Source of the DNA: a virus
Lineage: Duplodnaviria > Caudoviricetes
DNA: 64,000 nt
Direction: 5' to 3' (one strand)
IMG/VR virus record: IMGVR_UViG_2562617147_000003
Span: 10,046 to 74,045 of that record
Shown piece by piece: positions 1,420-55,362 of this stretch (position 1 is its first letter; the number at the start of each line of letters is the position of its first letter). The position numbers were made by a program, and so were the translations under genes. The notes beneath the pieces were generated by a model, which saw only the letters and a program-made list of their open reading frames with translations, made no database searches and was not told the DNA's origin.

Positions 1420-1436
1420 AGCCGGAGCCGGCAATC

Positions 1437-11855: not shown

Positions 11856-11866
11856 GGGTTGCGCGC

Positions 11867-33653: not shown

Positions 33654-33966
33654 GGCTTAATTTTAAACGGCCTTGGGGGCTTTGACAACCACAGAGGGAT
33701 AAAAGGACGGGCCGGGGGATGGAGGTCATCCTCGGCTCGTTTCTATGCCAATGAGGGCAGTATGGCTTGTTGCTGGTGCTTGTTGACGGGGGTTACATAG
33801 GGTTTGTCTTTGATGTTGACGGGGTTGAAATTTATTTACATCCTGGAGTAGCACAAGCTTAATCTGCTTGGTTTTACTAATAATACTTCTTAATCCTGTA
33901 TGATTATTAATTATATTAATGTGTTACTTTCAGTGTGGAAATATCCTACGGAAAGCGAGGTTAAAA

Positions 33967-35523
33967 ATGGATCTGTCTTCGCTGGTAAAAGATTTCAGTA
34001 CAACGCCGTTCCTTTTTGTGGGGTCTGGTTTTTCTCGGAGATACTACGGTCTTCCCGACTGGAAAGGCCTTTTGCAGATTTTTGTCCAAAGAATGAGCAA
34101 CGATGAGTTTGCGTTCAACAAGTATATAAGCAGGGCTGAAGGCCTTATAAATTCTGGAAAAGAAGGAATCCTGCTTGCCGTTACCGCCGGACTCATCATG
34201 CAAGATTTTGACAGACTTTGGTATGAGGATTCTTCTTTCCGTCAGCTGAGGGATTCCTACAAGGTGTTTGTGAAGAATGGGCAGTCACCATTTAAGGTAG
34301 AGGTAGCCCAATATATTGATAACCATTCCGTCCCTGTGGAAACCATGCGAGGCGAGCTGGCAAAATTGAAAGAACTTTCCCGCCGTAGCTTGGCTGGCAT
34401 TATTACCACCAATTATGACTGCCTTCTTGAGATGGAAATGGAGGATTATAAAACCTTCGTTGGGCAAGAAGAACTTATCTTCTCCGCGCTCCAGGGCTGG
34501 GCGGAGATATACAAGATACATGGTTCTGTTACCAATCCGGGTACTATTATCATTACAGATAAAGATTACAGGGGATTTAAGGAATACAGTCCTTATCTTG
34601 CGGCAAAACTTATGACTATATTTATTGAGTTTCCAATTATATTTATTGGATATTCAATAAATGACCCTAATATCCGTATAATATTGGAAGAGCTTGGTAG
34701 ATGTCTTTCGAAGGAAAATCTTCAAAGGCTTCAGCGCCGCTTTATCTATGTGGAGCATAAGAAGGATAAACATGATATAGAATTTTTTGAACATTCCATA
34801 GTGATTCGTGACGACTATATCCATATGACTGGCATTAGAACAGACAATTTTATGGCAATTTATGAAGCACTTGCTGAAAAACGGGCTTCTCTTCCTGCCA
34901 AGCTTATTCGTATGTTCAAACAGGAATTTTATACTTTTGCGCTGACTAGCGAACCTACGGCCAGAATACGGGTAGCTAATATTGATGACGCACGAGTAAG
35001 AGATGAAGATCTCATGATTGCGATTGGGAAAGCGTCGGAGTTTGGTTTGAGGGGATTGTCCGGCATGACGATGAAAGAATGGTATCAACATGTTGTTCTA
35101 CATGATCTTGAATTCTCTGCTGACGACATCCTAACGTATGCTTTTCCTGTCTTGCATAGAAAAAACATGGCCCTGCCGTTGAACATGCTGCTGAACGAGG
35201 CAAACAGGTCATACCCTGAATGCGAAGCAAACAGATGTGCTAGTTTTGATTCTATACTAAACTCAAATTATAGAAAAGGAAGGAATAGAACTATAGAGGT
35301 GAGAAGCATAAATGGAATCATTAAATGTTTTAATAATGATATGCATAAAATCATATATGAGATTCCGTATCTCAAGGAATCAGAGATTGATGTAGAGGAG
35401 TTGGAAGCCTATCTGAGAGGACTCTTTTATCAAAAAGGGCTTTATAATAACCTAGATAACAATAAAAGGTCAGATCTGCACAGAGTGGTACGGATATTTG
35501 ATTATCTCAAATATGGCAGATAA
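33967..35523 (+). CDS. SIR2-like domain protein (candidate anti-phage NADase)
   Basis: FVGSGFS...LPDW, ITTNYD, YKIHGS, PIIFIGYSINDPNI; GAGG RBS; low GC. Confidence 0.85.
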   Translation: MDLSSLVKDFSTTPFLFVGSGFSRRYYGLPDWKGLLQIFVQRMSNDEFAFNKYISRAEGLINSGKEGILLAVTAGLIMQDFDRLWYEDSSFRQLRDSYKVFVKNGQSPFKVEVAQYIDNHSVPVETMRGELAKLKELSRRSLAGIITTNYDCLLEMEMEDYKTFVGQEELIFSALQGWAEIYKIHGSVTNPGTIIITDKDYRGFKEYSPYLAAKLMTIFIEFPIIFIGYSINDPNIRIILEELGRCLSKENLQRLQRRFIYVEHKKDKHDIEFFEHSIVIRDDYIHMTGIRTDNFMAIYEALAEKRASLPAKLIRMFKQEFYTFALTSEPTARIRVANIDDARVRDEDLMIAIGKASEFGLRGLSGMTMKEWYQHVVLHDLEFSADDILTYAFPVLHRKNMALPLNMLLNEANRSYPECEANRCASFDSILNSNYRKGRNRTIEVRSINGIIKCFNNDMHKIIYEIPYLKESEIDVEELEAYLRGLFYQKGLYNNLDNNKRSDLHRVVRIFDYLKYGR

Positions 35524-36342: not shown

Positions 36343-39300
36343 TTTCGGCCCTTTGAAGGCCCGCAAAGCGCTTTTGCGCACTGGCTCCGGCAAAACAAAG
36401 CCACCGCGCTTTATCAGAGCGCCGGCGGCTCTCCGGCTCAACCCAAGCCCGCCGAGGCGGGGCGTGTCTCTGAACTCAAGCAGGGTGGCTTTGAACACAC
36501 ACTAGCTGAAGAGGGCGGCACTGACAAGAGTCCCGGTGACGCCTCCGCCATACCCCGTCGGCGTGCGCCGGTCATTGAGGTTCGCGGCGATGAGCTGGGC
36601 GTGCCGGAGGGCGCGCCCAGCAGGGAGTACCAGAAAGCCGCCCGCGAATTGTACCGGAAATTACAGAAGACGCCAGCGCAGCGGGAGGATCTGGGAGAAA
36701 TCAGGTTTACCAAGGCAGGGTGGAGCGAAGCGGCGCGCACCGGCGCGGATCCGAGAAAGTGGCGGCTTTTTCCGAAATTGAAAGAAATCATCGAGGGCGC
36801 GGCGTACATTGAGCGCCATGAGCTCAGGAAGCAGCGCAAAGATAATATTATCGCCTTTCACTGGCTGGAAACCGATGTTGCATTGGGGGGCGAAAATCTT
36901 CGCGTGGGGGTGCAGATTGCGGAAGATGCCGACGGCAACAAATTCTACAACCTGAACCAGGATTTGGAGGGATGGAGTCAAAAATACGAAGCTCCCGGAG
37001 CAGATCCGGCTCTATCGGATGCCGGCCCCCAGGAGCTTCGCCAGAACGCGACAGCGCCTGTTGAAAACAGAATAGTTCCTGACGCCGACAGCGTCAACCT
37101 GCATATCCTGCCGCAAGAGGGAGGGCAGGGCGGCCCTGTGGTCCGGGGCTCCGTCACCCTCTCGCCCGAGAGCGCGGCCGCCCGCATTTTCAAGGAGGCC
37201 AATCTCTCCACCATCCCGCACGAATCCGCGCATATTTTTCTGGATGACCTCATGCGCGTGGCCGCGGACGACGGCTCCATCGCCCTGGGCAACATGCGCC
37301 GCTCCCTGGCTGATGCCCTCAAGGGCGAGGCCCCGGCCGTCCGCCGGACCGTGGACGCATTGCTGGCGGATGCCGCAAAATCCCCGGCCTATAAGCGCAT
37401 TGCCGCCCTGCGCACAGCCGTTGCCGAACTGCGCGCCAATGCGCGGGACGCCCGCGCCGCCTCGCGCGCCCATGCGGCGGCCGTGGAGGAGCTGCAGCGC
37501 CGGGCCAGGGAAAAGGGCGAAACCTTCCAGCCCGGCCAGACCCCGCCCTGGTTTGGCCACCAGGCCGCGCGCATCCTCTCCCGCGACCATGCTTCCGCCA
37601 ACGCCCGCGCCGCCAACATCGTCAGCCGTGCCGTGGGCCATCTCCACGCCCTGGACCAGGCCCGGGCCGATCTGCGCGCCCTGCGCCAATGGGCTCAGGT
37701 TCCTGTGGAAGGCGAGCTTGCCCAGGGCTCGGAAGAATGGACGAAATTCCATGAAACCGTGGCGCTCGGTTTCGAGCAATATCTCAGGGAGGGCAGGGCC
37801 CCCAGCCGCAAGCTGGAAGCGGCCTTCGCCCGCCTGCGTTCCTGGCTGCTGAAAGTGTACGGGCAGGCCCGCGACATTCTGGGCCTGCCCGTCAGCGACG
37901 ACGTGCGCCGCGTTTTCGACCGCATGCTGGCCACGGACGCACAGATCCGCCGGACGCGCGGGATGCGAAATGTCCTGGCCGCCGAGAGCGACTTCATGGG
38001 CAGCGGCCAGCTCCGGCATGACGAGTGGGACGAACTCAACGCCATGCGCGGCCAGGCCGAGCGCGAGGTGCAGGCCGCCATGGACCGCGCCACCCTGCGC
38101 GAACGCAACATGCGGTATAAAGAATACTACGCCGAGGCCCTGGCCGGGCTGGATGCGTCGCCCTTCTGGCAGATGGTGGGCGACCTCTCCGCGCGCACGC
38201 GCACGCCGGAGGGGCAATCCCTGGGCGGCCTCGACCGCGCCGGTGTCGCCCGCCTCATCGGCGAGGAGCAGACGGCGGAGCTTTCCCGCGCCCGGCACGG
38301 CATCATCAACGCCCGGGGCAATGGCTCGCCTGTGGACATGGCCGCCATGGAACAGGGCTATGAAGACGCGGACGCCCTTGTCCATGATCTCTACGACGCA
38401 CTGGTGGTCCGGGGCGAAAGCAAGAAAAAGCTGGCCGTCGCCCTGGCCGAGCAGCGCCTGGCCGAGGACGACAGGGCGGCCGAAGCCGATGCCCTGCTGC
38501 ACGGCGGCGAGAGCTACGCCGCCTATCTGGACAAGGTGGACGAGGTGGTGCTGCGTATCGCCGCCCGCAAGGGCTACCGCGGTGTGGAAGAACAGGACCG
38601 CTTTGTGCGCAACTCCATCACGCCCCGCAGCGTCGTCCGCAATCAGGCTTTCCAGATGTTGCACAACAGTCCCCTGCGCGACATCACGCCCGAACGCTAT
38701 CAGGCCATGCTCGACAAGGCGTTGCGCGACCGCTCCCGCGCCCTGGTGGACGGCGACGTGATGGCCGCCGTGCGCGCTGTGGACAATGCCCGCGTGGCCA
38801 ACGAACTGATCTGGTCCTCCCGCGACCAGTTGCGCCGCAGCGACGAACTGCTTGAGCTGGCCGCCAGAACAGCGGCCGCCAAGCCCGGAACTTTCCCCAC
38901 CATTCACCGCGAGGCCTTGCGCAAACTGCTGGAGCGTTACGGCCTGGCCCATATGCGCGGCCTGCCTGACCAGACGCTGGGCGCTTCCAGCCTGCGCGAG
39001 CTGGTGGAGAAAACCCTGCCCGGCGACGACGTGGCGGGCATTCTGCCCAGCTTTGCCGACTGGCTGCTCGACGGCGTGAATCCCGATACCGGCGCAGCCC
39101 TGCAGAACGGCCGTCAGTCCTGGCGTGATCTCACCCCCGCCCAGTTGCAGGAGGTGGAAAACCTGCTCCACTATCTGCGCCATGTCGGCTACGACGCCCG
39201 CACCGATGCCCGCAACAGCGAGGCCGCCAGGGTGGAGCTGACGGCCAACCAGGCGGCGGCGCGCATGCGGCCCCTGAAGGAAATGCCCAATGCCCCGGCG

Positions 39301-41529
39301 GACAGCCTGCGCCGCAAGGCTCAGGACGCCGCGCGCGGGCTTTATTCCGCCGTGGACGCCCTGCGCTGGGAGTTCCGCAAGGCCGACGGCTTCAGCAATG
39401 TGCCGGGCGAAGGGGAGGCCGGCCCCATGGAAACCATGCTGGACCAGATCCTGGGCGGCGAGCAGCGCGTCCGTGAGCGCGTGGAAGCCGTCAATCAGGC
39501 CATGGCTCCACATCTGGTCCACCTGGCCGACAGCGTGCGGCAGTGGGAGAAGCGCTACGGCAAAAATCTCATGCTCAAGGACGCTGTCGGCAGGCCCGTG
39601 GAATTGCCGCCCAGCCTGCACCGGGCCTACGGCAAAAAACACTGGACGGCGGACATGGTCCTGGCCCTGGCCCTCAATTGCGGCAACCGGTCCAATATGG
39701 CCCGCCTCGCCAGAGGGTATCCGGATCTGAACTATGAAACCCTGGAGACGCTGCTGGGCGATCAGACGGCCGCACGCATCTTCAATGCCGCCAGAGGACA
39801 GGACGCCGCCCCCACTCGCTCCGGCGGCAACCGTCCCGGCCTGCTCAGCCTGGACGACTGGCGGGCCGTGCAGGGCATCTGGGATGCTCTGGCCACCCAG
39901 TGGGCCGACACCCAGGCCGTGCACGAGCGCATGTTCGGCTTCAAGCCCCAGGGCGTGGAGCCGCGGCCCCTTGTCCTCACGGACCTGACCGGCAACGCCG
40001 TCACCCTGCCCGGCGGCTACTACCCCGTGCGCTATGATCCCAACGTCTCCGACCGCGTGGCGGCCTGGAATGAAAAGGAAGACCTCATGGCCCGCAACGA
40101 GGCCATGTTCTCTGTTCCGGCCGCCAGGCGCGGCTATACCCAGGCCCGCACCGAGCGCGCGCCGGTCCTGCCCCTGCGCCTGGATACCGGCATCATCATG
40201 GAACACATCAACGACGCCGTGCGCTTCATTGAATTGGGCGAGATCGTGCGCCGGGCGGACCGGGTCACCCAGAATCCCGCCTTCCGTGTGGAGTATGCCC
40301 GCGTCTACGGCCGGAGGGATTACGACGCCATCCGGCCCAACCTGCGCGGTCTGGTGCGGCAGGAGCCGCCGCCCAAAAGCGACTGGGTGGTCTCCGTCGC
40401 CAATGCCATGAGAAAATACCTTGTGCCCTGGGGCCTGGCCTGGAATCTCAAGGTGGCCGCCCTGCAAATGACCGCCGTTTTCCCGGCCATGGGCGATCTG
40501 GGCGCGCGGCCCGTGCTGCGCGCCATGGGGCATATGTCCCGTCACGGCCTCTCGACCATGCGCCGGATCTGGGAGGTCAGTCCCTATATGAAGTCCCGCA
40601 TGGACAATATCGACCAGGACCTCCGGCGCCATATGGCCAATTTCAATCCGGCCCGGCGTCCCAAATCCGTCCGCATCGGCAAACGGGAGATTGCCTGGGA
40701 AGATCTGGTCAACGCGGGCATGCTGCCCATCGTGGGCGTGGATATGGCCGCCACCGGCGCGGTCTGGCTGGCCGCCTACGCCAAAAAGCTCTCCCAACTG
40801 CAAGGGGAGGCCGCAAACTACGGCATCAGTACCGACAGCGAGTTCCACCGGCAGGCCGTGGACTTTGCCGACTCCATGGTCAAGCAGTCCAATCCGGACT
40901 ATGACCCCTCGTCCCGCAGCGGCTTTCTGCGCGCCCAGAACGGCTATCGCCTCGTCAACGCCTTCGCCGGCGCCGTCACGCTCTTTGCCGCCCGCCACAA
41001 GTACATGTATACCGCCCATGCCAAGGGCAAAATCAGCCTGGGCCGCCTGGCCAGGTTCGAGCTGTACGACACCATTCTGCCCGCCGCCGGCATGTTCCTT
41101 TTCCTGGCCCTGGTGCGCGGCTACGCCGGTGACGACGACAATGAGGAACTGACCAGGCTCGCCATGTCTTCGCTCTGCGACTTCGGCTCCCAGCGCATCC
41201 CCATTTTCGGCAGCAACGTGGGGGACGGTCTCATGTCCCTCATGGGCATGGGCGAAGGCAGCCAGAAACGGGGCGGCGTGCGCACCACGCTGGATACGCC
41301 CGTGCAGCTCTGGAGCGTGGCCACCGGCAGGGCGGGCCGCGCCCTGCATGAGGGCGTCACCAACGACGAGCAGGCCAGGCAACTTGTCTACGCCGCGGCC
41401 GACATCGCCAGCTTCCTGGCCAGGGTGCCCGTCTCCAAGCCCGCCTGCAATGCCGAGCGCGGCTGGGACCAGTGGCAGCGCGGCAAGGGCACGCCCCTTT
41501 CCGTGCTTATGCCCCGGCCGGGGAGGTAG
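36343..41529 (+). CDS. Giant polyvalent/ejection-type protein lacking an evident native N-terminus (LPD3-like plus HExxH)
   Basis: Frame open from 36343 with no ATG/RBS before GTG 36601; ALYQ linker, GNKFYNL, STIPHESAH. Confidence 0.7.
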   Translation, partial: FRPFEGPQSAFAHWLRQNKATALYQSAGGSPAQPKPAEAGRVSELKQGGFEHTLAEEGGTDKSPGDASAIPRRRAPVIEVRGDELGVPEGAPSREYQKAARELYRKLQKTPAQREDLGEIRFTKAGWSEAARTGADPRKWRLFPKLKEIIEGAAYIERHELRKQRKDNIIAFHWLETDVALGGENLRVGVQIAEDADGNKFYNLNQDLEGWSQKYEAPGADPALSDAGPQELRQNATAPVENRIVPDADSVNLHILPQEGGQGGPVVRGSVTLSPESAAARIFKEANLSTIPHESAHIFLDDLMRVAADDGSIALGNMRRSLADALKGEAPAVRRTVDALLADAAKSPAYKRIAALRTAVAELRANARDARAASRAHAAAVEELQRRAREKGETFQPGQTPPWFGHQAARILSRDHASANARAANIVSRAVGHLHALDQARADLRALRQWAQVPVEGELAQGSEEWTKFHETVALGFEQYLREGRAPSRKLEAAFARLRSWLLKVYGQARDILGLPVSDDVRRVFDRMLATDAQIRRTRGMRNVLAAESDFMGSGQLRHDEWDELNAMRGQAEREVQAAMDRATLRERNMRYKEYYAEALAGLDASPFWQMVGDLSARTRTPEGQSLGGLDRAGVARLIGEEQTAELSRARHGIINARGNGSPVDMAAMEQGYEDADALVHDLYDALVVRGESKKKLAVALAEQRLAEDDRAAEADALLHGGESYAAYLDKVDEVVLRIAARKGYRGVEEQDRFVRNSITPRSVVRNQAFQMLHNSPLRDITPERYQAMLDKALRDRSRALVDGDVMAAVRAVDNARVANELIWSSRDQLRRSDELLELAARTAAAKPGTFPTIHREALRKLLERYGLAHMRGLPDQTLGASSLRELVEKTLPGDDVAGILPSFADWLLDGVNPDTGAALQNGRQSWRDLTPAQLQEVENLLHYLRHVGYDARTDARNSEAARVELTANQAAARMRPLKEMPNAPADSLRRKAQDAARGLYSAVDALRWEFRKADGFSNVPGEGEAGPMETMLDQILGGEQRVRERVEAVNQAMAPHLVHLADSVRQWEKRYGKNLMLKDAVGRPVELPPSLHRAYGKKHWTADMVLALALNCGNRSNMARLARGYPDLNYETLETLLGDQTAARIFNAARGQDAAPTRSGGNRPGLLSLDDWRAVQGIWDALATQWADTQAVHERMFGFKPQGVEPRPLVLTDLTGNAVTLPGGYYPVRYDPNVSDRVAAWNEKEDLMARNEAMFSVPAARRGYTQARTERAPVLPLRLDTGIIMEHINDAVRFIELGEIVRRADRVTQNPAFRVEYARVYGRRDYDAIRPNLRGLVRQEPPPKSDWVVSVANAMRKYLVPWGLAWNLKVAALQMTAVFPAMGDLGARPVLRAMGHMSRHGLSTMRRIWEVSPYMKSRMDNIDQDLRRHMANFNPARRPKSVRIGKREIAWEDLVNAGMLPIVGVDMAATGAVWLAAYAKKLSQLQGEAANYGISTDSEFHRQAVDFADSMVKQSNPDYDPSSRSGFLRAQNGYRLVNAFAGAVTLFAARHKYMYTAHAKGKISLGRLARFELYDTILPAAGMFLFLALVRGYAGDDDNEELTRLAMSSLCDFGSQRIPIFGSNVGDGLMSLMGMGEGSQKRGGVRTTLDTPVQLWSVATGRAGRALHEGVTNDEQARQLVYAAADIASFLARVPVSKPACNAERGWDQWQRGKGTPLSVLMPRPGR

Positions 41530-45214: not shown

Positions 45215-45811
45215 TCAATTCAGCAACCCGCGCACTGTGTCGCCATAAACATCTACCTGCGCGTCCGGCACGGCCTCCCGCACGACGCCGGGCCTGTTCA
45301 GAAGCGCGCTGATCACCACTCCGGCGCAAAGCAGCAGCATGACCAGCGCAAACACCCCCAGCACGGTCTTGTAATACGGCTTCGCGGGCGCTTCGCTCCT
45401 GACGCCCCGCGCCATGCGGCGCAGCAGCCGCCACAACAGATGCAGCCCACCCAGCGCCGCCAGAGGGGCCGCGGCGCAGAGCGCCAGAAAAAGGGGAAAG
45501 TTTCTGAACGCGTGAAATTCCCGCCCGAACACCTTGGCAATCATTTTAAAAAAAGCTGTCAGGGTTTGGTCAATCTTTTCATCCAGGGGAAGACGGTCAT
45601 AGGGGATGGCGCGTAGGTCTTCCGCCGGCGTGATTTCGCAGTCAAAATTCATGGAATACTTTTTATTTATTCTGGCGCACTCAGCCGGGTCGGGCTTCCG
45701 TCTGGCCTCAATGGTATACGAAAAGTCCGGGGCCGGGCCATATGCGCTCGTTTCAGTGCCCACATACGGCCTGTGGCTGTTCATAAAGAGAAAAATGAAG
45801 AACCCGCCCAT
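45215..45811 (-). CDS. Hypothetical membrane protein
   Basis: Two hydrophobic segments; start uncertain. Confidence 0.45.
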   Translation of the reverse strand: MGGFFIFLFMNSHRPYVGTETSAYGPAPDFSYTIEARRKPDPAECARINKKYSMNFDCEITPAEDLRAIPYDRLPLDEKIDQTLTAFFKMIAKVFGREFHAFRNFPLFLALCAAAPLAALGGLHLLWRLLRRMARGVRSEAPAKPYYKTVLGVFALVMLLLCAGVVISALLNRPGVVREAVPDAQVDVYGDTVRGLLN

Positions 45812-46972
45812 TACTGCATCATGCGGCGGCGCTCATCCAGATATAGGGCATGGTTATATGCGCGCCGCACACTGTCGCGTTCCCCCGTGGGCGAGTTGTG
45901 CCTCGATAATGTCCGACCTGTACCCTTGTTCGTTGAGCAGAGTAGAAGCCATGCTCCGGAAACCATGAATTGTCATCTCCCCCTTAGTGTAGCCCATACG
46001 CCGCAGCGCATTGAGCAGGCCCATATTCGACATGCAACGGGTCATGGTGAAGGGGGAGGGAAACAGCAGCAGGGATCGCCCCGAATATTCGCGTAGGGAT
46101 TCAAGCAGTTCTAATACTTGCCGGGCCAGCGGCACAATATGGGGGCGGCGCATCTTCATGCGCCCGGCGGGGATGAGCCACTCAGCCCTGGCAATGTCTA
46201 TCTCTGCCCACGCGGCCCCGCGCAACTCAACGGAGCGGACGAAAAGGTAGGGGAGGGTTTGCAACGCATGGCGGGTTACAGGGTCGCCCTGATAGCCGTC
46301 GATGGCTTGGAGCAGCCGTCCTATGGCTGCCGGGTCGGTTATCGTTGCGTGGTGCCTGTCTTTGGGGATTGGGGGCAAAGCTTCGTGCAGGCCCGCCGCA
46401 ACGTCGAATTTTGCATATCCGACAATCCGAGCATATCTGCAAATTTTCCCCATAAGTTGGGTCAACCTATGAGACATTTCAACAGCACCCCGGCTCTGTG
46501 TGTGCCGGACCGCTTCAAGGATATGAGCAGGCTCCAGGGTTGCAAAGGGGATGCTTCCAATGAACGGGAAGATATGATTTTCCAACCGTGAGAGCAGTTG
46601 TTTTTTATAGCCCTCGGTCAATTGTGTTGTCTTTGTCGCAAACCACTCGCGCGCCACGGTTTCAAATGTCCTGGTTTTTTCTTCCGCAATGACAACGGCG
46701 GCGGCTTTGACTTCCTTTTTGTGCTCGCTAGGGTCTACGCCGTGGGCCAGCAAGGTTCGCGCCTCATCCCGCCGCTTGCGGGCCTCTTTCAAAGAAATGT
46801 CTGGATACACGCCTAGGGCCAACGTTTTTTGCTTGCCGCCGAAGCGATATGCCAAGCGCCAATACTTCCCGCCCTTGGCGTAGACATGGATATAACGCCC
46901 GCCGCCGTCCGCCTTTTTCAGTGTGCGGCCCGTGGCCTTCAATCCCCTCAACAGCGTGTCTGACAGTGCCAT
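45811..46972 (-). pseudogene. int: P4-type tyrosine integrase with frameshift before the catalytic Tyr
   Basis: DGGGRY...KYWRLAYRFGGKQKTLALGVYP; HGFRSMAST; extra G at 45882-45886 puts ERDSVRRAYNH out of frame; TAA at 45811-45813. Confidence 0.85.
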
Positions 46973-47151: not shown

Positions 47152-47216
47152 TGGCGGGGACGCATAGGAGTCGAACCTACCGCAGACCGTAAAGCCTGCC
47201 ACCGGTTTTGAAGACC
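47152..47216 (-). tRNA. selC: 3' fragment of tRNA-Sec (att site), not an intact gene
   Basis: GGT-CT-TCA-AA-ACC anticodon loop, long variable arm, GGTTCGACTCC T-arm, CCA end; 5' acceptor and D arm absent. Confidence 0.8.
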
Positions 47217-47288
47217 TATCACCCCGCAGCATAAAGGAAGACTTGTTTTTTCCGTACACCTCCAGAGGAAAAACCTTTTGGAGGCGTT

Positions 47289-48152
47289 ATGCTTACGTTA
47301 GATGAAGCCTGGAACAGCTATCTTGCGACCCGCCACCTGACCCCATACGGGTATTTGACGGATATGAGCCGTTACCGTGTCCATCTGCAAACTTATTGGC
47401 ACGGAAAAACTCTAACGTCAATAAAAACCCTGGATATTCAATTTTATACAAACCACCTGTTTGAGAAAGGACTTTCTCCGCAAACCGTCAGGCTATGCCT
47501 TGGCCAGTTGCGGCGCATCATGCGTCGCGCTCATCGGTTAGGGCTACTGGAAGGCCAACTGCCATATTTTGAAATGCCCCCAGCCGACAGCGTGCGTTAC
47601 CGTTATCTTGAGCCGGAGGAGGCCACTAGTCTTTTGCAGGTGTTACGCAATCTCTCTCAGCTTTGGCATGACATAGCCTTGCTTTCTCTTAATACAGGAA
47701 TGCGGGCGAGTGAGATTTTTTCTTTGCGTGGAGCCAATATAAATGTTCCACAAGAGAATATTATTTTGCATAAAACAAAAAATCTCAAGCAGCGTATTGT
47801 TCCATTGAATAGTCCATCCCTAAACATTGTAAAAAAATATCATAGAAAAAATGCAGAGCTTCTTTTTCATCAGGAAGAAAGCTCTAATAAGCAATTTGTA
47901 AAAATATCAAAAAAATTCAGAAGAGCAGTTGAGATAAGCGGATTAAATGAAGGCATTATAGATAATCGTTATCGTGTTGTTTTTCATACTCTACGTCATA
48001 CATTTGCAAGTTGGCTTGTGCAGCGTGGAGTATCATTGCAGGTTGTCAGCAATCTTTTAGGACACAGCTCTGTTCGCGTAACTGAACGCTATGCGCATCT
48101 TGCGCCGGATCAAGGCCGAAATGCTCTTAAATTTTTGCCTTGTATTTCATAG
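47289..48152 (+). CDS. Tyrosine recombinase/integrase
   Basis: LNTGMRASEI, HKTKN, FHTLRHTFASW, LLGHSS...TERYAH; catalytic residues intact. Confidence 0.9.
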   Translation: MLTLDEAWNSYLATRHLTPYGYLTDMSRYRVHLQTYWHGKTLTSIKTLDIQFYTNHLFEKGLSPQTVRLCLGQLRRIMRRAHRLGLLEGQLPYFEMPPADSVRYRYLEPEEATSLLQVLRNLSQLWHDIALLSLNTGMRASEIFSLRGANINVPQENIILHKTKNLKQRIVPLNSPSLNIVKKYHRKNAELLFHQEESSNKQFVKISKKFRRAVEISGLNEGIIDNRYRVVFHTLRHTFASWLVQRGVSLQVVSNLLGHSSVRVTERYAHLAPDQGRNALKFLPCIS

Positions 48153-48320: not shown

Positions 48321-48382
48321 TCAACGCCGGGGGTGGCTTGCTTATTCGCCTTCGGCTCAACGCTAAAAACAGGGAGAAAATC

Positions 48383-49264
48383 ATGGAAGACAGCCAGACC
48401 AACGAACAGGAAATCACCACGCAACCCATTGAAAACATTGTTGAGATTAACGACGGCAAGATGTTCACCACGTCGCTGACCGTCGCCAATGCCTTCGAGA
48501 AGGAGCACAAAAACGTGCTTCAGGCGATTGAAAATTTGGAGTGCTCGAAGGAGTTTCTAGAGCTGAATTTTCAGCTCTGTAATTATTCCAGTGAGTTAGC
48601 ACCAGATGGGCGAAAATATTCCTTTTATCAGATCACCCGCGACGGCTTCGCCTTCCTGGCCATGGGCTTCACGGGCAAGAAGGCGGCCTGGAAAGAGAAG
48701 TTCCTGGAGGCGTTTAACGCGATGGAAGCGGCGCTGCTGGCCAGACGGCCGGAAGAACCGAGGCCCATTCTGGAAGAAGAGGAGAAAGCCATCTCCCCCA
48801 AGGAGCGTAGTCGTTTCTTCAGGCCCAGGCGAAAAATATCCAAGAGCGACGCTAAAGCCGTGCATGGTTTGCTCCATATGGAGTCATTTGTTCAAGAAAT
48901 GACCTGGGATGAAGCTGTGGCGCGGTTTTGCGAGAAAATGCATATTGAAAGGATTGAGGATTTGCCCCAATCCGATTTCATGGAGGCCATTACCAATACT
49001 TTTAAAAAGCTTTTTTTCGTGCACACCTGGGAGCGTCAAGAGAGCAATCCGGCTTCAGTGGAGTTGAGGGATGCTTTTCAGGGGATGCTGACTTTCTGGC
49101 GTCAGGTGACCGACTTCTCGGAGACAGATATTCGCAACTATATTCTTAACCGTTGTGGTGTGGATAGCCTGGACGACATTGTGAGCGAACGGGACACCCT
49201 CAAGGCCCTTTTCGTTCTTTGGGGAGGGATTGCCAATCATACCTTGGAAGCGCGGGTCTGGTAG
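48383..49264 (+). CDS. Rha-family phage regulatory protein
   Basis: TTSLTVANAFEKEHKNVLQAIENL, YQITRDGFAFLAMGFTGKKA..WK..F..AFN.ME. Confidence 0.85.
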   Translation: MEDSQTNEQEITTQPIENIVEINDGKMFTTSLTVANAFEKEHKNVLQAIENLECSKEFLELNFQLCNYSSELAPDGRKYSFYQITRDGFAFLAMGFTGKKAAWKEKFLEAFNAMEAALLARRPEEPRPILEEEEKAISPKERSRFFRPRRKISKSDAKAVHGLLHMESFVQEMTWDEAVARFCEKMHIERIEDLPQSDFMEAITNTFKKLFFVHTWERQESNPASVELRDAFQGMLTFWRQVTDFSETDIRNYILNRCGVDSLDDIVSERDTLKALFVLWGGIANHTLEARVW

Positions 49265-49265
49265 C

Positions 49266-49592
49266 ATGCCGGAAGAAAAGAAGCCCAAACGCACGGAACG
49301 GCTACAAGCCTATGTGACGCCGGAGGAGTTCACTCTTATCATGGAGTCCAGCGACCGGGCCGGGCTGAGCATGTCGGAGTTCGCCCGGCGTGTGTGTCTG
49401 GGCTTCCGGGTGGAGAGCCGGGAGGACCAGCAGGCCCGGCGGGAGCTGCTGAAGGTCAACGCCGATCTGGGGCGGCTGGGCGGCCTGCTCAAGCAGGCTC
49501 TGGCCACCGGCCATAAGGAGCAGATTTACGGACTGCTCCATAAGATTGATCAGCTTCAGGCAAGCCTGAAGGCCAGGATCAGGGCGCTATGA
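49266..49592 (+). CDS. mobC: Relaxosome accessory protein (MobC/TraJ-like RHH)
   Basis: AYVTPEE...AGLSMSEFARR, ELLKVNADLGRLGGLLK. Confidence 0.8.
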   Translation: MPEEKKPKRTERLQAYVTPEEFTLIMESSDRAGLSMSEFARRVCLGFRVESREDQQARRELLKVNADLGRLGGLLKQALATGHKEQIYGLLHKIDQLQASLKARIRAL

Positions 49593-51424
49593 TCAGCAAG
49601 CGGATTCCGTGTGCCCCTAAAAATGATAACTACGCCCGGCTGGCAAATTACATTGCCGCCGGGCGTGAACATGACATGCAGCAGGAGTTTAGCGATGGAC
49701 AACGGCACTATGATCCGCAGCGCCACTTTGAAACAGGTCAAGGCATTGCCGGAAACCGCATGCGTCGGCTGTCCGAATGCCGTCTGGCATCTTACTCGCA
49801 AGGACAGGAAAGAGGAGCTGCGGATTTTCTGCCTGCTGATGCACGCCTTGATCGACGCGCCGATGGCGGCGTGCGACGGCACGCTGATCTTCCCGAAGAT
49901 GTAAAACCTGAAAAATGCCTCATGAGCTGGTGCGCCGGGTGCTGGGCCGGGGACGATTACGAGCTGGCCATCCAGGAAGTGGCCGATACCCAGGCGCTTA
50001 ATACGCGCACCACCCAGGAGAAAACCTATCATCTGATTGTGAGTTTCCGGCCGGAAGATGAAACCAGGCTGACGCCGGAAACATTCAAGGCCATTGAGGA
50101 ACGCTTTGCCCTGGCTTTGGGGCTATCGGAACATCAGCGGCATTGCGGCGTCCACGTCAACACGGAAAACATGCACATGCACGTCGCTTATAATCTGATC
50201 CACCCGGAAAAGCTGACGCGCGTGGAGCCCTGGCGGGACTATATCAAGCGCGACAAGCTCTGCCGGGAGTTGGAGAAGGAATACGGCCTTGTCATCGACA
50301 ACGGCCGGGATAAGGCCCAGGAACAGGGCCTTGGTGAAAGGGCCGCAACCGTGGAGGCGCACACCGGCCGACAGTCTTTTGAGGGCTACGCGCGCGACCA
50401 GGGCGAGGCCATTCTGGCCATATTGGAAAATGCGCGTTCCTGGGAGGACGTGCATTGCGCCTTTGCCCGGCATGGCCTGGAGCTGAAGCCGCGCGGGGCC
50501 GGACTTGTGGTCAAGGACCGACATGGGCGGCACATGGCCAAGGCCAGCGCCGTGCATCGGGATTTATCCCGGAAGAAGCTGGAAGCCCGGTTTGGAGCCT
50601 TCCAGCCATCCAGGGGAGCAATGCCGGAAAGCGAACGACGCTACGGCGCTGATCCGCTTCAGAAGGCACCGAACCGGAATCAGCTCTGGCAGGAGTTCCA
50701 GGAACAGCGCCAGGTCCAAAAAATAGGCCTGGAAGATATCCGCCGGAAGTGGGAGCAACAGCGCATGGACTTGCAGCGCAGGCCCATAGCGCGCAGGACC
50801 AGGGCTAATCTTATGAAAATGGTCCGCCAGTATGAAGCGGAAGAAATCCACGCCGCGCGCGTGAACCAGGGCGCGGGCAACTGGCTTGATTTTTTGCGGC
50901 AGAAAGCCGCCCAAGGCGACGAAACCGCCCTGGCCGTCTTACGCTCCAGAAAAGAGGAAATCGCGCCGGAGATAACGCAGAGTCGCATGCAGGCCCGCGC
51001 GGCCTATCTGGCCAGCAAGACTGCAATCCTGGAGAATGCCGAGCTTTCCACCAAAACAAAAAACCGCCTCATCAGCGTCGCACTGATGGAGAGCCTGGCC
51101 AGTGGAACCACGGCCAGGATCAGCAAGCTCGGCAGTATCATCTATACGCTCCCCGATGGCGGGAAAATTTGCGACACCGGGCGCAGCATCAGCTTCAGCG
51201 ACGGGGCCAGGGAAACGGCCCTGGATTATATGACTGCCAAGTGGAGCGTAAAGCGAAGGCGGGTGTCTCTGGACAGGGACACAGGCGATCTCGTGTACAC
51301 GCTGGACAGTGGCCAGAAGATCTATGAGCGGAAGGGGCGGAATGTCTTTGAACGGCCCGCCGTTGTCCACCGGCAGCGCCAGTTGGAGCGGGAGCGGCCC
51401 AGGAACCAGGGTATGGAGCGGTAA
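49589..51424 (+). CDS. traI: MOBP relaxase (TraI-like)
   Basis: LANYI (catalytic Tyr region), YHLIVSFRPED, HQRHCGVHVNTENMHMHVAYN. Confidence 0.9.
   Translation: MISKRIPCAPKNDNYARLANYIAAGREHDMQQEFSDGQRHYDPQRHFETGQGIAGNRMRRLSECRLASYSQGQERGAADFLPADARLDRRADGGVRRHADLPEDVKPEKCLMSWCAGCWAGDDYELAIQEVADTQALNTRTTQEKTYHLIVSFRPEDETRLTPETFKAIEERFALALGLSEHQRHCGVHVNTENMHMHVAYNLIHPEKLTRVEPWRDYIKRDKLCRELEKEYGLVIDNGRDKAQEQGLGERAATVEAHTGRQSFEGYARDQGEAILAILENARSWEDVHCAFARHGLELKPRGAGLVVKDRHGRHMAKASAVHRDLSRKKLEARFGAFQPSRGAMPESERRYGADPLQKAPNRNQLWQEFQEQRQVQKIGLEDIRRKWEQQRMDLQRRPIARRTRANLMKMVRQYEAEEIHAARVNQGAGNWLDFLRQKAAQGDETALAVLRSRKEEIAPEITQSRMQARAAYLASKTAILENAELSTKTKNRLISVALMESLASGTTARISKLGSIIYTLPDGGKICDTGRSISFSDGARETALDYMTAKWSVKRRRVSLDRDTGDLVYTLDSGQKIYERKGRNVFERPAVVHRQRQLERERPRNQGMER
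49695..49904 (+). CDS. traH: TraH-like protein nested in an alternative frame inside traI
   Basis: GGAG RBS; SATL...PETACVGCPNAVW...FCLLM...CDG matches the RP4 TraH Cys pattern. Confidence 0.75.
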   Translation: MDNGTMIRSATLKQVKALPETACVGCPNAVWHLTRKDRKEELRIFCLLMHALIDAPMAACDGTLIFPKM

Positions 51425-51934: not shown

Positions 51935-52006
51935 ATGCGGAAACTTGTTTTCGCTCTGCTTGTCGCTGTGGCCCTGGTCCTCTTACTGACGTCTGACGCC
52001 AGATAA
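51935..52006 (+). CDS. Type I toxin-like 23-aa peptide 1 (MRKLVFALLVAVALVLLLTSDAR)
   Basis: AGGAGG RBS, upstream anti-SD, structured 5' and 3' flanks and terminator (module ~51870-52140). Confidence 0.7.
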   Translation: MRKLVFALLVAVALVLLLTSDAR

Positions 52007-52304: not shown

Positions 52305-52652
52305 TACCCGGAACTGTTCGTTCTTATGGGCAGCCAGGTGCCGGATTTGAGGGGGCTGTTTCTGCGTGGGCACGGGGGCAAGAGCGCTGCTCTGGGAGTC
52401 CAGCAGGGCGACGCTATACGGAATATTACTGGTGGCTTTGTCCCAGGCAATCAATATGCAAACGCGGGCATTAAAAACACTTCAGGGATCTTTCGACCTG
52501 GAGGAGCCTTTGGACGCAATGACTTCCGGGAATCAGGAGCAAACAGCTCCCCGGATGAAGTTATTCTCGACGCATCCCTACAAGTGCCCACAGCCGAGGA
52601 AACTCGCCCGGTGAATCTGGCTGTGCGCTACCTGATCCGCGCCAAGCCCTGA
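52305..52652 (+). other. Silent C-terminal cassette A of the tail-collar adhesin gene
   Basis: Homology starts exactly at TACCCGGAACTGT (YPEL); no signal peptide or RBS; ends RPVNLAVRYLIRAKP. Confidence 0.85.
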
Positions 52653-52819
52653 TGCTTGCCAAACAGGCATGGAGACGTTATCTAAAAAGGGAACCCCGGC
52701 CCCTGCGCGAACAGGAACCGGGGCTGGCACGGCGCGGTTAGCGCCCCCGTGCACGACTACCGCAGCGTTTTTACCTACGGCCCCGTATCAGGTGTAAGCT
52801 GATACGGGGCCAGCCTCAT

Positions 52820-52891
52820 CTAAGGCCGACTATCGCCCCGCAACAGCAGGGCGAGAAGTACCAGCAACACCAAGACGGCAAAGCGTCTCAT
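52820..52891 (-). CDS. Type I toxin-like 23-aa peptide 2 (MRRFAVLVLLVLLALLLRGDSRP)
   Basis: AAGGGGGT RBS with complementary upstream ACCCCCTT; module ~52681-52957. Confidence 0.7.
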   Translation of the reverse strand: MRRFAVLVLLVLLALLLRGDSRP

Positions 52892-53015
52892 GTGATGGCA
52901 CCCCCTTTGATAGTTTGCGCCGTGCCGGGCGCAGATCAGGAAGGGGGTAGCCGTGCCCGTTCCTTATATCCACATTCATCCCGCCCGGCAACGCTTTGCC
53001 GAGCAACACGGCGCG

Positions 53016-53363
53016 TACCCGGAACTGTCCGCGCTTCTCGGCGGCCAAGTGCCGGATTTGAGGGGCTTGTTCCTGCGTGGCCACGGGGGGAACAGCGCTG
53101 AATTAGGCTCACCTCAGGGGCATGCCATGCGCGACATATCTTCAGCGGGCAGCATCAGCGTAGGGTTCGGAGGGTATCTGACAGGAAATGGGATTTTTAA
53201 GCCTGTTGGTAGTCATGGCGTGGTTGTCATTAGGGGCTCGTGGGACGGCAATTGGGGGAGCACTGCTTATGGACTTGATCTTTCTGCCGGTGGTGTACCT
53301 GTGGCCAATGAGGTTCGGCCTGACAACCAAGCGGTACGATTTTTAGTCCGCGCCCGCCCGTGA
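53016..53363 (+). other. Silent C-terminal cassette B
   Basis: Starts at TACCCGGAACTGT; VPDLRGLFLRG; ends RPDNQAVRFLVRARP. Confidence 0.85.
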
Positions 53364-53545
53364 ATTATGCTCTCCGCGTGCCACCCGGATTTTTGGTCAG
53401 AGTCCGGGTGACTCGCAGGAGTAACACGAATGACCTTGCAGTCGCTGATCCGGAACCAGGTCGGCCGATTCGCTAACTCGCTGAAATTTAAGATGGTGAG
53501 ATTTTAGGCCAGTAGCACGAAATTACAAAATCCCATCCCATTTCC

Positions 53546-53872
53546 TTATGGCCGGGCGCGGACAAGGTACCTAACCGCCTGATTGGCAGGGCGATTTTCT
53601 TCAGCGGTCGGAACGACACGAGAGAGGTCAAAGCCGACGCCATTACCGGACCAAGTACCGTAAGAGCTGCGAATATCTTCAGCGCATCCGCCCGTGCGAT
53701 AGAAAACCCCACCGGCTGAAGCGGAACCGTGTTGGCCGAAACTGCCGGTTATATTTCGTATGGCGTCACCTTGCCGGACGCCCAGCGCTGCCGAGTCGCC
53801 CCCGTGACCACGAAGAAACAGCCCCCGCAGATCGGGCACCTGGCCGCCCACAACCGCGAACAGTTCCGGGTA
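53546..53872 (-). other. Silent C-terminal cassette C
   Basis: Starts at TACCCGGAACTGT on the minus strand (53860-53872); ends RPANQAVRYLVRARP. Confidence 0.85.
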
Positions 53873-53999
53873 CGCGCGGGGCTGACTGGCAAAGCGTTGC
53901 CGGGCGAGAAGAATCCAGATATAAGAAGCGGACACGGCTACCCCCTATGCGTCGGCACGGCGCAATTTCCCGGCAACGCCGGTAAAGGGGGTATCAGCC

Positions 54000-54071
54000 A
54001 TGTTGCGTCTGCTTTTGACCACGCTCGTCGCGCTGATACTCGTCCTGCTGCTGGCTTCTTCAGCCAGATAG
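54000..54071 (+). CDS. Type I toxin-like 23-aa peptide 3 (MLRLLLTTLVALILVLLLASSAR)
   Basis: AGGGGGTA RBS with complementary upstream TACCCCCT; module ~53930-54210. Confidence 0.7.
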   Translation: MLRLLLTTLVALILVLLLASSAR

Positions 54072-54237
54072 CAGTTGACCCCGTATCAGGTGACGCTGAT
54101 ACGGGGTCGAAATAAGACTGTAACCCGGTAGCCGTGTAGCAAAGGGGCGCTCACGCGCCGTGCCAGCCCCGGTTCCTGTTCCCGCAGGGGCCGGGGTTCC
54201 CTTTTTAAATAACGCCTCCATACCTGTTTGGCAAGCA

Positions 54238-54807
54238 TTAGGGGTGGGCGCGGATCAGGTAGCGCACAGCCTGATTAACAGGGCGGTTTTCCCCGGCTGT
54301 GGGTACAACTCGGGAAGCGTCAAATATAACTGCCGCTCCAAACTCTCGTTTTTCATTTGCCGCACCATAGGGAGCATAACCAGCATCAGCAAATGCCCCA
54401 TCATAACCGTTCCACGCAAATTGATCATCAAATCCAAATTTTCCAGTAATATTCCGAATTGCGTCCCCCTGCTGAACGCCCAGGGCAGCGCTGTTTCCGC
54501 CGTGCCCACGCAGAAACAGCCCACGCAGATCGGGCACCTGGCCGCCGAGAACCGCAAACAGTTCCGGGTAAACTGACGGTGATATGTTTTGTCCGTTACA
54601 TTCCAGCCAGTTATCCATATCTTCCGGATTCTGGCCAACTGGCCACGCGAGGATCATTCCGACCGGGACGCCGCCGGAGCCTTTGGCCTTAACTTCCACC
54701 CTCGTGGGATCAAAGCTGGTGGCGTCAGCGCCGTGGATCGGAGAGGACGCCAGAAGGGGCAGGAGGAAAAACAGCGCTGCAAAAAGGCTTAAAATGCGTT
54801 TTTTCAT
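54238..54807 (-). CDS. Secreted phage-tail-collar-domain protein (expression locus; currently carries cassette D)
   Basis: Signal peptide, GVPVGMILAWP...WLECNGQ...YPELF...VPDLRGLFLRG; site at 54558-54570. Confidence 0.85.
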   Translation of the reverse strand: MKKRILSLFAALFFLLPLLASSPIHGADATSFDPTRVEVKAKGSGGVPVGMILAWPVGQNPEDMDNWLECNGQNISPSVYPELFAVLGGQVPDLRGLFLRGHGGNSAALGVQQGDAIRNITGKFGFDDQFAWNGYDGAFADAGYAPYGAANEKREFGAAVIFDASRVVPTAGENRPVNQAVRYLIRAHP

Positions 54808-54834: not shown

Positions 54835-55362
54835 TTACTTGCAGCGCAGGGTGTATTCTTTTTCCTGCGCTGAGTAGTCCAGTTTGCATTGTTTACCATT
54901 GAGCCAGAGAGTAAGCGCCTCAATGTCCAGAGCCATGTCGCCCATATCCGCGTTGAGCGAATAAACGGCAATCGCCTTGTCCTGGTCGCCCCCCATGGCT
55001 TTCGGCGGCCTTTCCGGCGTGAATGTCACCTTGCGGATGTTTTTCAGATTCACGGAAGACGGGCCATAAATCATTCCCGTATAGCGGATGATCTTTCCCT
55101 GGTGGAATTCAATCATCTCCGGGGAGGACGGGAACGCGATCTGAAGCCTTTCGGCCTTGATGGGAATGTTTTCGAGCATGTAACTGAGACAAGCCCCGTC
55201 AAAGCCCGGCCCTGTGACCACCATCCAATCACCGAAATCAGAACCCTCCGGCGGACTGGAAAAAACCTTGGAGACAGCCGCATGCGCGGACATCGGCACG
55301 CTGACCAGCAGGGGCAGCAGGAGGAATGCCGCGCAGAGAAGGGAAAGAATACGGTTTTTCAT
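54835..55362 (-). CDS. Secreted protein upstream of the adhesin gene on the same strand
   Basis: AAGGAG RBS; signal peptide MKNRILSLLCAAFLLLPLL nearly identical to that of the next gene. Confidence 0.7.
   Translation of the reverse strand: MKNRILSLLCAAFLLLPLLVSVPMSAHAAVSKVFSSPPEGSDFGDWMVVTGPGFDGACLSYMLENIPIKAERLQIAFPSSPEMIEFHQGKIIRYTGMIYGPSSVNLKNIRKVTFTPERPPKAMGGDQDKAIAVYSLNADMGDMALDIEALTLWLNGKQCKLDYSAQEKEYTLRCK

Follow-up and report, generated by a model that had tools for sequence, protein, structure and literature searches.

Shufflons are multiple-inversion switches that have been studied almost exclusively on enterobacterial IncI plasmids. In the R64/IncI system, which is carried by a conjugative element, one constant 5' gene part encoding the PilV thin-pilus adhesin (Pfam Shufflon_N) is joined to alternative 3' cassettes by Rci-mediated inversion at sfx sites, which have a conserved core and right arm and a variable left arm (PMC11852207), and the variable part is expected to set binding specificity. 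A variant in which PilV is fused to a phage tail collar domain has also been published (Milman et al. 2023, PMC9881135). In the tail-fibre inversion systems of phages (Mu G/Gin, P1 C/Cin and p15B Min, the last with multiple sites), inversion swaps the C-terminal receptor-binding part of a virion fibre encoded in a phage structural module, using serine invertases with an enhancer and Fis. Finally, antigenic variation by gene conversion (Neisseria pilE/pilS, Borrelia vlsE) combines one expression site with arrays of promoterless, headless cassettes, often in inverted orientation, but the donor copies are retained and the expressed gene is a mosaic. Here we describe a shufflon-type switch on a mobilizable element of a gut Desulfovibrio, which appears to exchange the predicted receptor-binding tip of a small, putatively Sec-exported, phage-tail-fibre-like protein among four versions. 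In contrast to the PilV systems, the protein lacks the pilus part, and no dedicated invertase gene was found on the element. Literature searches for a Desulfovibrio or Bilophila shufflon found no description.

One complete collar gene and three headless cassettes share a crossover site

The region was analyzed within a 64-kb stretch of DNA (the window) that forms part of a 74-kb record. A preliminary description had reported one complete gene and three headless C-terminal cassettes that share their ends, differ in a central region of about 50 aa and begin homology at an identical 13-mer; our analysis confirms this observation, which is far beyond chance. The 13-mer TACCCGGAACTGT occurs exactly four times in the window, at 52305(+), 53016(+), 53860-53872(-) and 54558-54570(-), whereas about 0.01 matches are expected by chance and 0 of 100 shuffled sequences reached four. 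The complete gene (54238-54807, minus strand) encodes 189 aa with a basic and then hydrophobic N-terminus (a Sec-type signal peptide, judged by inspection alone) and a match to Pfam Collar PF07484 (E 9e-11; 42 bits against a cut-off of 24), the only family found in this protein. Its first 79 residues (54571-54807, minus strand), comprising the signal peptide, a conserved mature N-terminus of roughly 50 aa and the first strands of the collar domain, form a constant region that is never exchanged: it was found at 95-99% identity joined to C-termini that are only 36-72% identical. The constant region ends at the expression-site copy of the 13-mer (54558-54570, minus strand), and the variable body that follows, E, is 110 aa.

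The silent cassettes are C1 (52305-52652, plus strand; site 52305-52317, body of 115 aa), C2 (53016-53363, plus strand; site 53016-53028, 115 aa) and C3 (53546-53872, minus strand; site 53860-53872, 108 aa). From each 13-mer the frame stays open to a stop, and all four bodies share the start YPEL..VPDLRGLFLRGHGG and the end ..RPxNxAVRYLxRAxP but differ in the central 50-60 aa. The cassettes start inside the collar domain and lack the 79 residues of the constant region, and homology begins abruptly at the 13-mer. The whole invertible region spans 52305-54570, from the outermost site, that of C1, to the expression site, and contains inverted repeats (I2-I5 of our repeat search). C1 and C2 are inverted relative to the expressed gene, but C3 is in direct orientation. 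This refines the preliminary description, in which inversion between opposite sites was taken to fuse any cassette in frame, since C3 needs two inversion steps whereas C1 and C2 need one.

Homology and fold searches place the encoded protein with the receptor-binding domains of phage short tail fibres. Residues 47-187, covering the whole mature protein, align to residues 155-304 of the phiTE short tail fibre (9cuy_c, E 9e-25), with the same layout of collar N-part, inserted head and a C-terminal strand returning to the collar. A Foldseek search with the monomer model, which is of only moderate quality (pLDDT 71), ranked T4 gp12 first at probability 1.0, although with low TM. Unlike T4 gp12 and the phiTE fibre, the protein has no fibre shaft or baseplate-attachment part and carries a Sec-type signal.

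Related elements carry precise inversions and exchanged cassettes

To assess whether the cassettes are exchanged, we compared the region with related loci (L numbers) and proteins (P numbers) from other samples. Alternative arrangements, whose absence from any population or related genome had been set beforehand as evidence against a switch, were found between related elements. Positions 10235-11032 of L050 match 11035-10238 of L009 (798 bp, 97.5% identity) with a colinear left flank, L049 shows the same junction, and the crossover lies within a 21-nt identical block that starts with the 13-mer. In L014, the constant region is joined at the 13-mer to C2, and the C2-spacer-C3 block is inverted relative to the window. 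The inverted pairs are, however, 91-98% identical relatives from different samples rather than the same clone. Assembled unitigs from four sequencing data sets, which break in the repeats, contained two low-support joints that skip sequence and no strand-changing joint, an outcome that says nothing either way about heterogeneity; higher depth over the constant region only hints at extra copies in those isolates. Five samples carrying the identical expressed protein P0003 share one arrangement, so switching may be rare. A search for exact junction patterns found nothing in viral contigs or in a first metagenome scan, whereas a looser scan gave three contigs.

Cassette types that are silent in the window are expressed elsewhere, and the reverse. 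The C2 protein is 100% identical to the expressed C-terminus of P0089 in L014, the C3 type is expressed in L015, L027 and L028, and the E type is headless in P0068 and P0079, although no expressed counterpart of C1 was found. Likewise, silent cassettes of L009 are expressed in L049, L050 and L110. In 10 loci, the expressed body was never present among the silent cassettes of the same locus, so the exchange is reciprocal, in contrast to the non-reciprocal copying of pilS and vls systems. Orientation patterns in all but one locus are a run of direct cassettes followed by a run of inverted ones, the topological invariant of such an inversion system. L051 has three direct and no inverted cassettes, and L028 has dispersed cassettes and no recombinase within 10 kb.

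These results contradict the possibility that there is no switch and that the cassettes are decaying or independently expressed duplicates of a collar gene. Gene callers do annotate some cassettes as 120-136-aa ORFs with GTG starts, and the arrangement was stable across five samples. Nevertheless, all cassettes keep open frames although they lack the signal peptide, and silent-silent orthologous pairs gave dN/dS of 0.06-0.12 at dS up to 0.6, indicating strong purifying selection. Together with the precise inversions and the fusion of the same cassette types to the constant region elsewhere, this makes duplication without switching the least likely explanation considered.

Site architecture resembles that of sfx sites

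Third-codon identity within a locus is 0.96 over nt 1-12 of the site. Positions 3 and 6 are 1.00 within loci but about 0.5 between loci, and identity falls to the between-locus level (about 0.4) from nt 49. Thus, synonymous positions of the first 12 nt are homogenized within each locus but differ between loci, as expected for the core of a tyrosine-recombinase site. Crossover sites with a conserved core and right arm and a variable left arm occur at the cassette boundaries in both orientations. At the expression site, the left flank CAGTT mirrors AACTG around the 7-nt TACCCGG, but this dyad (CAGTT-N7-AACTG) is only partly conserved at expression sites across loci and we offer it as an observation, not as evidence.

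The same data bear on whether exchange could instead occur by general homologous recombination or gene conversion, with RecA, one of the candidates of the preliminary description, acting on the conserved 75-130-nt block and the conserved 3' ends. The cassettes share 116-197 nt at 75-83% identity at the 5' end and 45-178 nt at 72-88% at the 3' end, arrays with all cassettes inverted, such as that of L027, resemble vls arrays, and no invertase is present in cis. However, the mapped crossover lies in the first 21 nt, only the first 12 nt are homogenized within loci, the inverted segment ends exactly at the two sites, exchange is reciprocal, and dedicated recombinases flank the arrays elsewhere. 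We therefore consider this mechanism very unlikely.

The recombinase is probably not encoded in cis

No serine recombinase is present in the record (no match to PF00239 at E 0.1), which separates this locus from the Gin, Cin, Min and Hin systems. The only tyrosine recombinases in the 74-kb record are a 287-aa Xer-like protein (47289-48152, plus strand) and a frameshifted P4-type integrase, so that no dedicated recombinase gene lies adjacent to the array. In related loci, by contrast, a clade of 346-406-aa tyrosine recombinases sits 0.1-2.5 kb from the arrays in L027, Bilophila wadsworthia (two loci) and Desulfovibrio sp. ZJ369, and this clade was seen in 0 of 20 cassette-less loci. On the Nitratidesulfovibrio vulgaris plasmid pDsulf-L2-2, a 346-aa member sits inside the array of an annotated PilV (Shufflon_N plus Collar) shufflon whose site is TACCCGGAGCTG, nearly the same as TACCCGGAACTG here. 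The cassettes of that plasmid are homologous to those described here (the conserved start block of about 43 aa is 74% identical), the crossover is at the same point of the collar domain, and the direct-then-inverted orientation pattern is shared. There, however, the constant part is a PilV N-domain of roughly 360 aa within a type IVb pilus operon, whereas here it is 79 aa and no pil genes are present. Compared with R64, each cassette carries a single site at its 5' end rather than lying in a segment flanked by sites on both sides, and the associated recombinase clade gave no hit at E 1e-8 to enterobacterial plasmids that would carry Rci.

The preliminary description had named the 287-aa protein, a helper enzyme or RecA as candidates. 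The 287-aa protein is the only intact tyrosine recombinase of the element, an orthologue is present in the L009-type element, in which an inversion demonstrably occurred, a 42%-identical relative lies 2.1 kb from the single cassette of L019, and it weakly matches tyrosine-type DNA invertase models (E 1e-8). Yet it is the terminal gene of the element, beside a tRNA-Sec-like sequence (47156-47263, minus strand; Rfam RF01852, 41.3 bits, E 1e-5, below the gathering score) that marks the left end as a probable attachment site, and the homology boundary with L052 falls at 47152. It is also conserved in the same synteny in L088, L093 and L102, relatives without cassettes, is only about 25% identical to the clade that flanks the arrays and the PilV shufflon, and lies 4.1 kb from the array behind the relaxase module. 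It is thus more likely the integrase, and a second role as the invertase remains possible but doubtful. By eye, no convincing similarity was seen between the shufflon core and the tRNA-Sec-like attachment region. A helper recombinase supplied in trans by a co-resident conjugative element is our favored but unproven inference, and we judge it about as likely as not.

A model for switching of an exported receptor-binding head

Taken together, the central interpretation of the preliminary description, a shufflon-like switch on a mobilizable element that exchanges the tip of a Sec-exported collar-domain protein, is supported, although its proposal of a hybrid system is only partly new given the published PilV-collar shufflon. 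In the model that we favor, and in which we are fairly confident, a tyrosine recombinase recombines the site at the end of the constant region with an identical site, in opposite orientation, at the head of a silent cassette. The DNA between the two sites would invert, so that the old C-terminal body becomes a silent cassette and the chosen cassette is fused in frame. The site would consist of a 7-nt core (TAYCCNG) that must be identical among partners, a conserved right arm (AACTGT..) and a variable left arm. By homology to phage short tail fibres, the exchanged 50-60 aa are predicted to form the distal receptor-binding head, and the switch would therefore change what the exported protein binds. 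Because homologous cassettes form the tip of PilV conjugative-pilus adhesins in the same bacterial family, the most likely role is recognition of a cell-surface ligand during conjugation. The anatomy, the precise inversions among related elements, the swapping of cassettes, the selection on silent cassettes and the co-variation of the core are established by our comparisons, whereas the identity of the enzyme, the rate of switching, and the export, location, ligand and adhesin or recipient-specificity function of the protein are inferred.

An alternative with the same mechanism but a different purpose is that the exported gp12-like head binds the cell's own envelope glycans to mask phage receptors or mediate exclusion. 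The protein has only a Sec-type signal and no pilin or anchor domain, its closest solved relatives are phage receptor-binding fibres, and a prophage lies next to the element. However, in every context examined the gene belongs to a transfer-gene neighborhood (TrbL; T4CP, TraF, ArdC, TopoIII and RdgC; or DotI/IcmL) and homologous cassettes form the tip of a PilV adhesin, making this purpose unlikely. We also rejected the possibility that the gene is a tail-fibre gene of the adjacent prophage, since the same synteny occurs without a phage in L009, L050 and L052 and the prophage structural genes identified lie at about 1-41 kb. A more speculative and rather unlikely extension, although not excluded, is that this is an orphan shufflon, in which the mobilizable element carries its own repertoire of exported heads, relies on the shufflon recombinase of a co-resident conjugative helper that uses the same core site, and then uses the switched protein to redirect the helper's mating apparatus, or the cell surface, towards recipients of its own choosing. 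This would be a parasite-of-a-plasmid strategy for recipient choice, operating without a PilV pilus.

Distribution and element context

A homologous cassette-and-site module is common in the Desulfovibrionaceae searched (several Desulfovibrio species, Bilophila wadsworthia and Nitratidesulfovibrio vulgaris). About 1,370 related proteins were found, the constant region occurs in 20 of 201 sampled species genomes, and arrays reach ten cassettes. The module has been moved from PilV onto a minimal, putatively Sec-exported gp12-like head carried by elements with P-type, I-type or incomplete transfer systems. If the protein sets recipient or surface specificity, it offers a handle on how conjugation chooses partners in anaerobic gut bacteria. 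The cassette-less, invertase-bearing and invertase-less versions together form a natural series for testing trans-acting invertases, and the recombinase clade and its 12-nt core add a new, sequence-defined inversion system for synthetic biology.

The gene content is that of an integrative mobilizable element, and confirms the mobilizable-element context given in the preliminary description. A Rha-like regulator, a NikA-like accessory protein and a MOB relaxase are encoded at 48338-51424 (plus strand), and ParA and HTH_36 proteins are also present. The transfer functions are limited to the relaxase, the NikA-like protein and TrbL, indicating an incomplete T4SS. In L052, the terminal recombinase is also beside chromosomal genes, and the right end of the element lies beyond the window. 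Upstream of the collar gene, at a distance of 27 nt, a co-oriented gene (54835-55362, minus strand) that is probably co-transcribed encodes a predicted secreted protein of 175 aa, which had no match in Pfam, NCBIfam or the protein atlas and is syntenic in L009, L015 and L050.

The collar protein and its cassettes

The 13-mer TACCCGGAACTGT occurs four times in the window, at 52305(+), 53016(+), 53860-53872(-) and 54558-54570(-), whereas about 0.01 matches are expected by chance, and the arrangement of sites and cassettes recorded in the preliminary description held. The ORF at 54238-54807(-) encodes a protein of 189 aa that begins with a basic and then hydrophobic segment (MKKR, a hydrophobic run, then ..IHG/AD), which by inspection is a Sec-type signal, and matches Pfam Collar at E 9e-11. 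From each of the other three 13-mers (cassettes C1 at 52305, C2 at 53016 and C3 at 53860-53872) the same reading frame (Y-P-E-L) stays open for 108-115 codons to a stop. All four bodies share the first roughly 43 aa and the last roughly 30 aa and differ in the central 50-60 aa. The cassettes lack the first 79 residues, so they start inside the collar domain, and homology between copies begins abruptly at the 13-mer. C1 and C2 are inverted relative to the expressed gene and C3 is direct. In addition, a 178-nt inverted repeat at 88% (52559-52736 and 54154-54331) covers the 3' ends of C1 and of the expressed gene plus 84 nt downstream, a second homology block that could allow homologous exchange of cassette 3' ends.

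Residues 47-187, essentially the whole mature protein, align to residues 155-304 of the short tail fiber of Pectobacterium phage phiTE (9cuy; PMC11972413) at E 9e-25 and more weakly to T4 gp12 and gp37. An AlphaFold monomer model built on 32 homologs is moderate (pLDDT 71), and its best structural matches are T4 gp12 chains at probability 1.0, with low TM-scores, as would be expected for a chain that is intertwined in a trimer. The variable center corresponds to the region inserted between the N-part of the collar and its returning C-terminal strand, and in gp12 that region is the receptor-binding head.

Genomic context

The record is an IMG/VR 'provirus' of 74 kb in which podovirus-type prophage genes lie at about 1-41 kb, but the locus belongs to a separate mobilizable element. 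This element comprises a 287-aa Xer-like recombinase (47289-48152), a Rha-like regulator, a NikA-like protein and a relaxase, the cassette array and the collar gene, a 175-aa secreted protein of unknown family, HNH proteins, TrbL/VirB6, ParA and an HTH_36 protein. The same element without a phage was found in several gut metagenome contigs (L009-L013, L015 and L050). The 175-aa secreted protein (54835-55362(-)) lies directly upstream of the collar gene, and its signal peptide is 58% identical to that of the collar protein. No family was found for it in Pfam, NCBIfam or the protein atlas, and it is syntenic only in this element type.

Evidence that cassettes are exchanged between silent and expressed positions

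We found about 1,370 homologs of the collar protein, and those with names are from Desulfovibrio. Among the best 120 homologs, the 79-aa constant region occurs at 95-99% identity joined to C-termini that are only 36-72% identical to that of the window. Full-length proteins carry the cassettes that are silent in the window, since the homolog P0089 has the C2 body at 100% and the homologs P0010 and P0018 have the C3 type at 92-94%, and conversely the expressed body of the window occurs elsewhere as a headless ORF (P0068 and P0079). Across ten loci the same cassette types recur, silent in one locus and expressed in another, and the expressed body is never duplicated among the silent cassettes of the same locus. 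For example, silent cassettes of L009 are expressed with the same element-type constant region in three other loci, L049, L050 and L110. Finally, orthologous pairs that are silent in both loci show dN/dS of 0.06-0.12 at dS up to 0.6, indicating that the 'silent' copies are maintained as coding sequence.

Evidence for exchange by inversion at the site

Comparison of related loci, all close relatives from different samples, indicated that the exchange is inversion at the site, in support of the shufflon-like interpretation proposed in the preliminary description. L050, a contig of 35.6 kb, is colinear with L009 up to the expression site, after which L050 10235-11032 matches L009 11035-10238 over 798 bp at 97.5% in reverse orientation, which is exactly the segment between the expression site and the first cassette site. 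L049 shows the same junction, and in a four-way alignment the switch from expression-site-like to cassette-like sequence falls within a 21-nt identical block that starts with the 13-mer. In addition, in the ICE-type locus L014 the constant region is joined at the 13-mer to C2, and the C2-spacer-C3 block (865 bp, 91%) is inverted relative to the window. The order in the window itself (expressed, C3 direct, C2 and C1 inverted) is the product expected from one inversion between the expression site and the second cassette of the commoner arrangement, in which all cassettes are inverted (L009, L015, L014 and L027). Nevertheless, five samples with the same expressed protein share one arrangement, so the switching rate may be low.

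In a system where each cassette has one site at its 5' end, any inversion preserves a pattern of direct cassettes first and then inverted ones, with at least one inverted. Of the loci examined, the window, L017, L020, L033, L029, the Nitratidesulfovibrio vulgaris plasmid discussed below and the all-inverted loci fit this pattern, and the exception is L051 (10238-12727). In this ICE-type locus all three cassettes are in direct orientation and no inverted partner was seen within 1.5 kb, an arrangement that inversions alone cannot produce, so it may be a frozen or truncated array next to phage-like genes. L028 also does not fit neatly. The contigs L027 and L028 have the identical expressed protein and 10 kb of identical upstream DNA but different arrays, in that L027 (10238-15498) has ten tightly packed cassettes followed by a recombinase, whereas L028 has cassettes dispersed over 8 kb among unrelated genes, with no recombinase.

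The crossover site

Within each locus the sites are identical, but they differ between loci at synonymous positions. The site is TACCCGGAACTGT in the window and L014, TACCCCGAACTGT in L009, L015, L050 and L051, TATCCGGAACTGT in L017, TATCCAGAACTGT in a further related locus, L019, TATCCGGAACTGG (six copies) in Bilophila wadsworthia and TACCCGGAGCTG in N. vulgaris. Over 38 cassettes, third-codon identity within loci is 0.96 for nt 1-12 of the site, with positions 3 and 6 at 1.00 within loci and about 0.5 between loci, and identity decays to the between-locus level (about 0.4) by nt 49. A short block whose sequence may drift but must stay identical among partners is what the overlap region of a tyrosine-recombinase site requires. 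The flanking AACTG is conserved across loci. Expression sites often carry CAGTT to the left, mirroring AACTG, but this is only partly conserved and we treat it as a lead. A small palindrome, GGCAACGCTTTGCC, lies 20-35 nt upstream of the core of C2 and C3 (approximately 52975-52995 and 53895-53915) and of several cassettes in other loci (L009, L015, L014 and L017), but not of C1, and may be an accessory binding site or part of the divergent small-ORF promoter.

Candidate recombinases

The record has no serine recombinase and two tyrosine recombinases. One of these, the P4-type integrase (Arm-DNA-bind_3, Phage_int_M) at 45854-46972, appears frameshifted near its 3' end, before its catalytic-tyrosine motif (..RRAYNHALYLDERR..), which lies in a separate overlapping ORF at 45811-45966 (the whole region being 45811-46972(-)). 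The other, the 287-aa gene at 47289-48152 that the preliminary description had put forward as a candidate invertase, is the terminal gene of the element. Homology with L052, a phage-free copy of the element, starts at 47152, at a tRNA-Sec-like sequence (47156-47263(-); Rfam RF01852, 41.3 bits, below the gathering score) that ARAGORN does not call, and in L052 the next genes are chromosomal. Since this sequence coincides with the left boundary of homology, it is probably the attachment site shared by the element and the neighboring prophage. Furthermore, orthologs of the 287-aa gene keep the same synteny in relatives that have a single collar gene and no cassettes (L088, L093 and L102), and it is therefore best read as the integrase.

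A different clade of tyrosine recombinases, of 346-406 aa, lies close to the arrays elsewhere: 100 nt beyond the ten-cassette array of L027, about 0.8-1.1 kb and 2.5 kb from the two arrays of B. wadsworthia ATCC 49260, and 0.9 kb from the array in Desulfovibrio sp. ZJ369. In N. vulgaris L2 plasmid pDsulf-L2-2 (NZ_CP116247.1; loci L106/L108) a 346-aa member (43% identity) sits in the middle of seven sites (TACCCGGAGCTG), inside the invertible region with three direct and three inverted collar cassettes, although its gene is missing from the distributed gene table. These sites belong to a gene annotated as the shufflon PilV adhesin, which has Shufflon_N plus Collar domains within a type IVb pilus operon. 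Its collar cassettes are homologous to those of the window (conserved start block, about 43 aa, 74% identical), and the crossover is at the same point of the domain. This clade was next to 5 of about 10 cassette-bearing loci and 0 of 20 cassette-less loci (p about 0.002 in a rough Fisher test), but it is absent from this record. Since the core of the window is identical to that of L014, the cassette repertoire is shared among element types, and a mobilizable element needs a helper in any case, we favor an enzyme supplied in trans, although we consider this only about as likely as not, with the 287-aa gene as the main alternative.

Inferred function and relation to described shufflons

In every neighborhood examined the stand-alone collar gene lies with transfer genes: TrbL in this element; after the coupling protein, TraF-type peptidase, ArdC/primase, topoisomerase III and RdgC in ICE-type contigs, including D. 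falkowii and D. piger; and beside DotI/IcmL in L027. Together with the PilV-collar homology, this makes ligand recognition during conjugation the best guess, although a receptor-masking role is not excluded. Whereas the exchange and inversion of cassettes were observed by comparing related loci from different samples, the identity of the enzyme and the function of the protein, including where it would reside in a diderm after its predicted Sec export, are inferences.

Milman et al. 2023 (PMC9881135) reported one locus where programmed inversions target a PilV-collar fusion and proposed repurposing of the phage domain for recipient specificity, so the combination of shufflon and collar is already published. 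Our literature searches found no description of the form seen here, namely a stand-alone collar protein with a Sec-type signal, widespread in the Desulfovibrionaceae searched, with arrays of up to ten cassettes, on elements that may lack the invertase.

Small ORFs in the spacers and the adjoining prophage

Three strongly hydrophobic ORFs of 23 aa with Shine-Dalgarno sequences lie in the spacers between cassettes, at 51935-52006(+), 52820-52891(-) and 54000-54071(+). Each is followed by a GC-rich hairpin and a repeated element of roughly 95 nt (repeats I1, I6 and D4 of the repeat search). They look like type I toxin-like or small membrane peptides, although a search of Rfam returned no match, and parts of these spacer modules are conserved in L015.

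The podovirus-type prophage region (1-42000) carries a T7-type portal at 11852-13516, a weak, below-cut-off nozzle-like match in 22405-24495, two giant proteins containing LPD3 (27861-30335 and 36601-41529) and a primase/helicase at 1368-3857. A low-GC insert in this region carries a SIR2_2 protein at 33919-35523, a possible defense gene.
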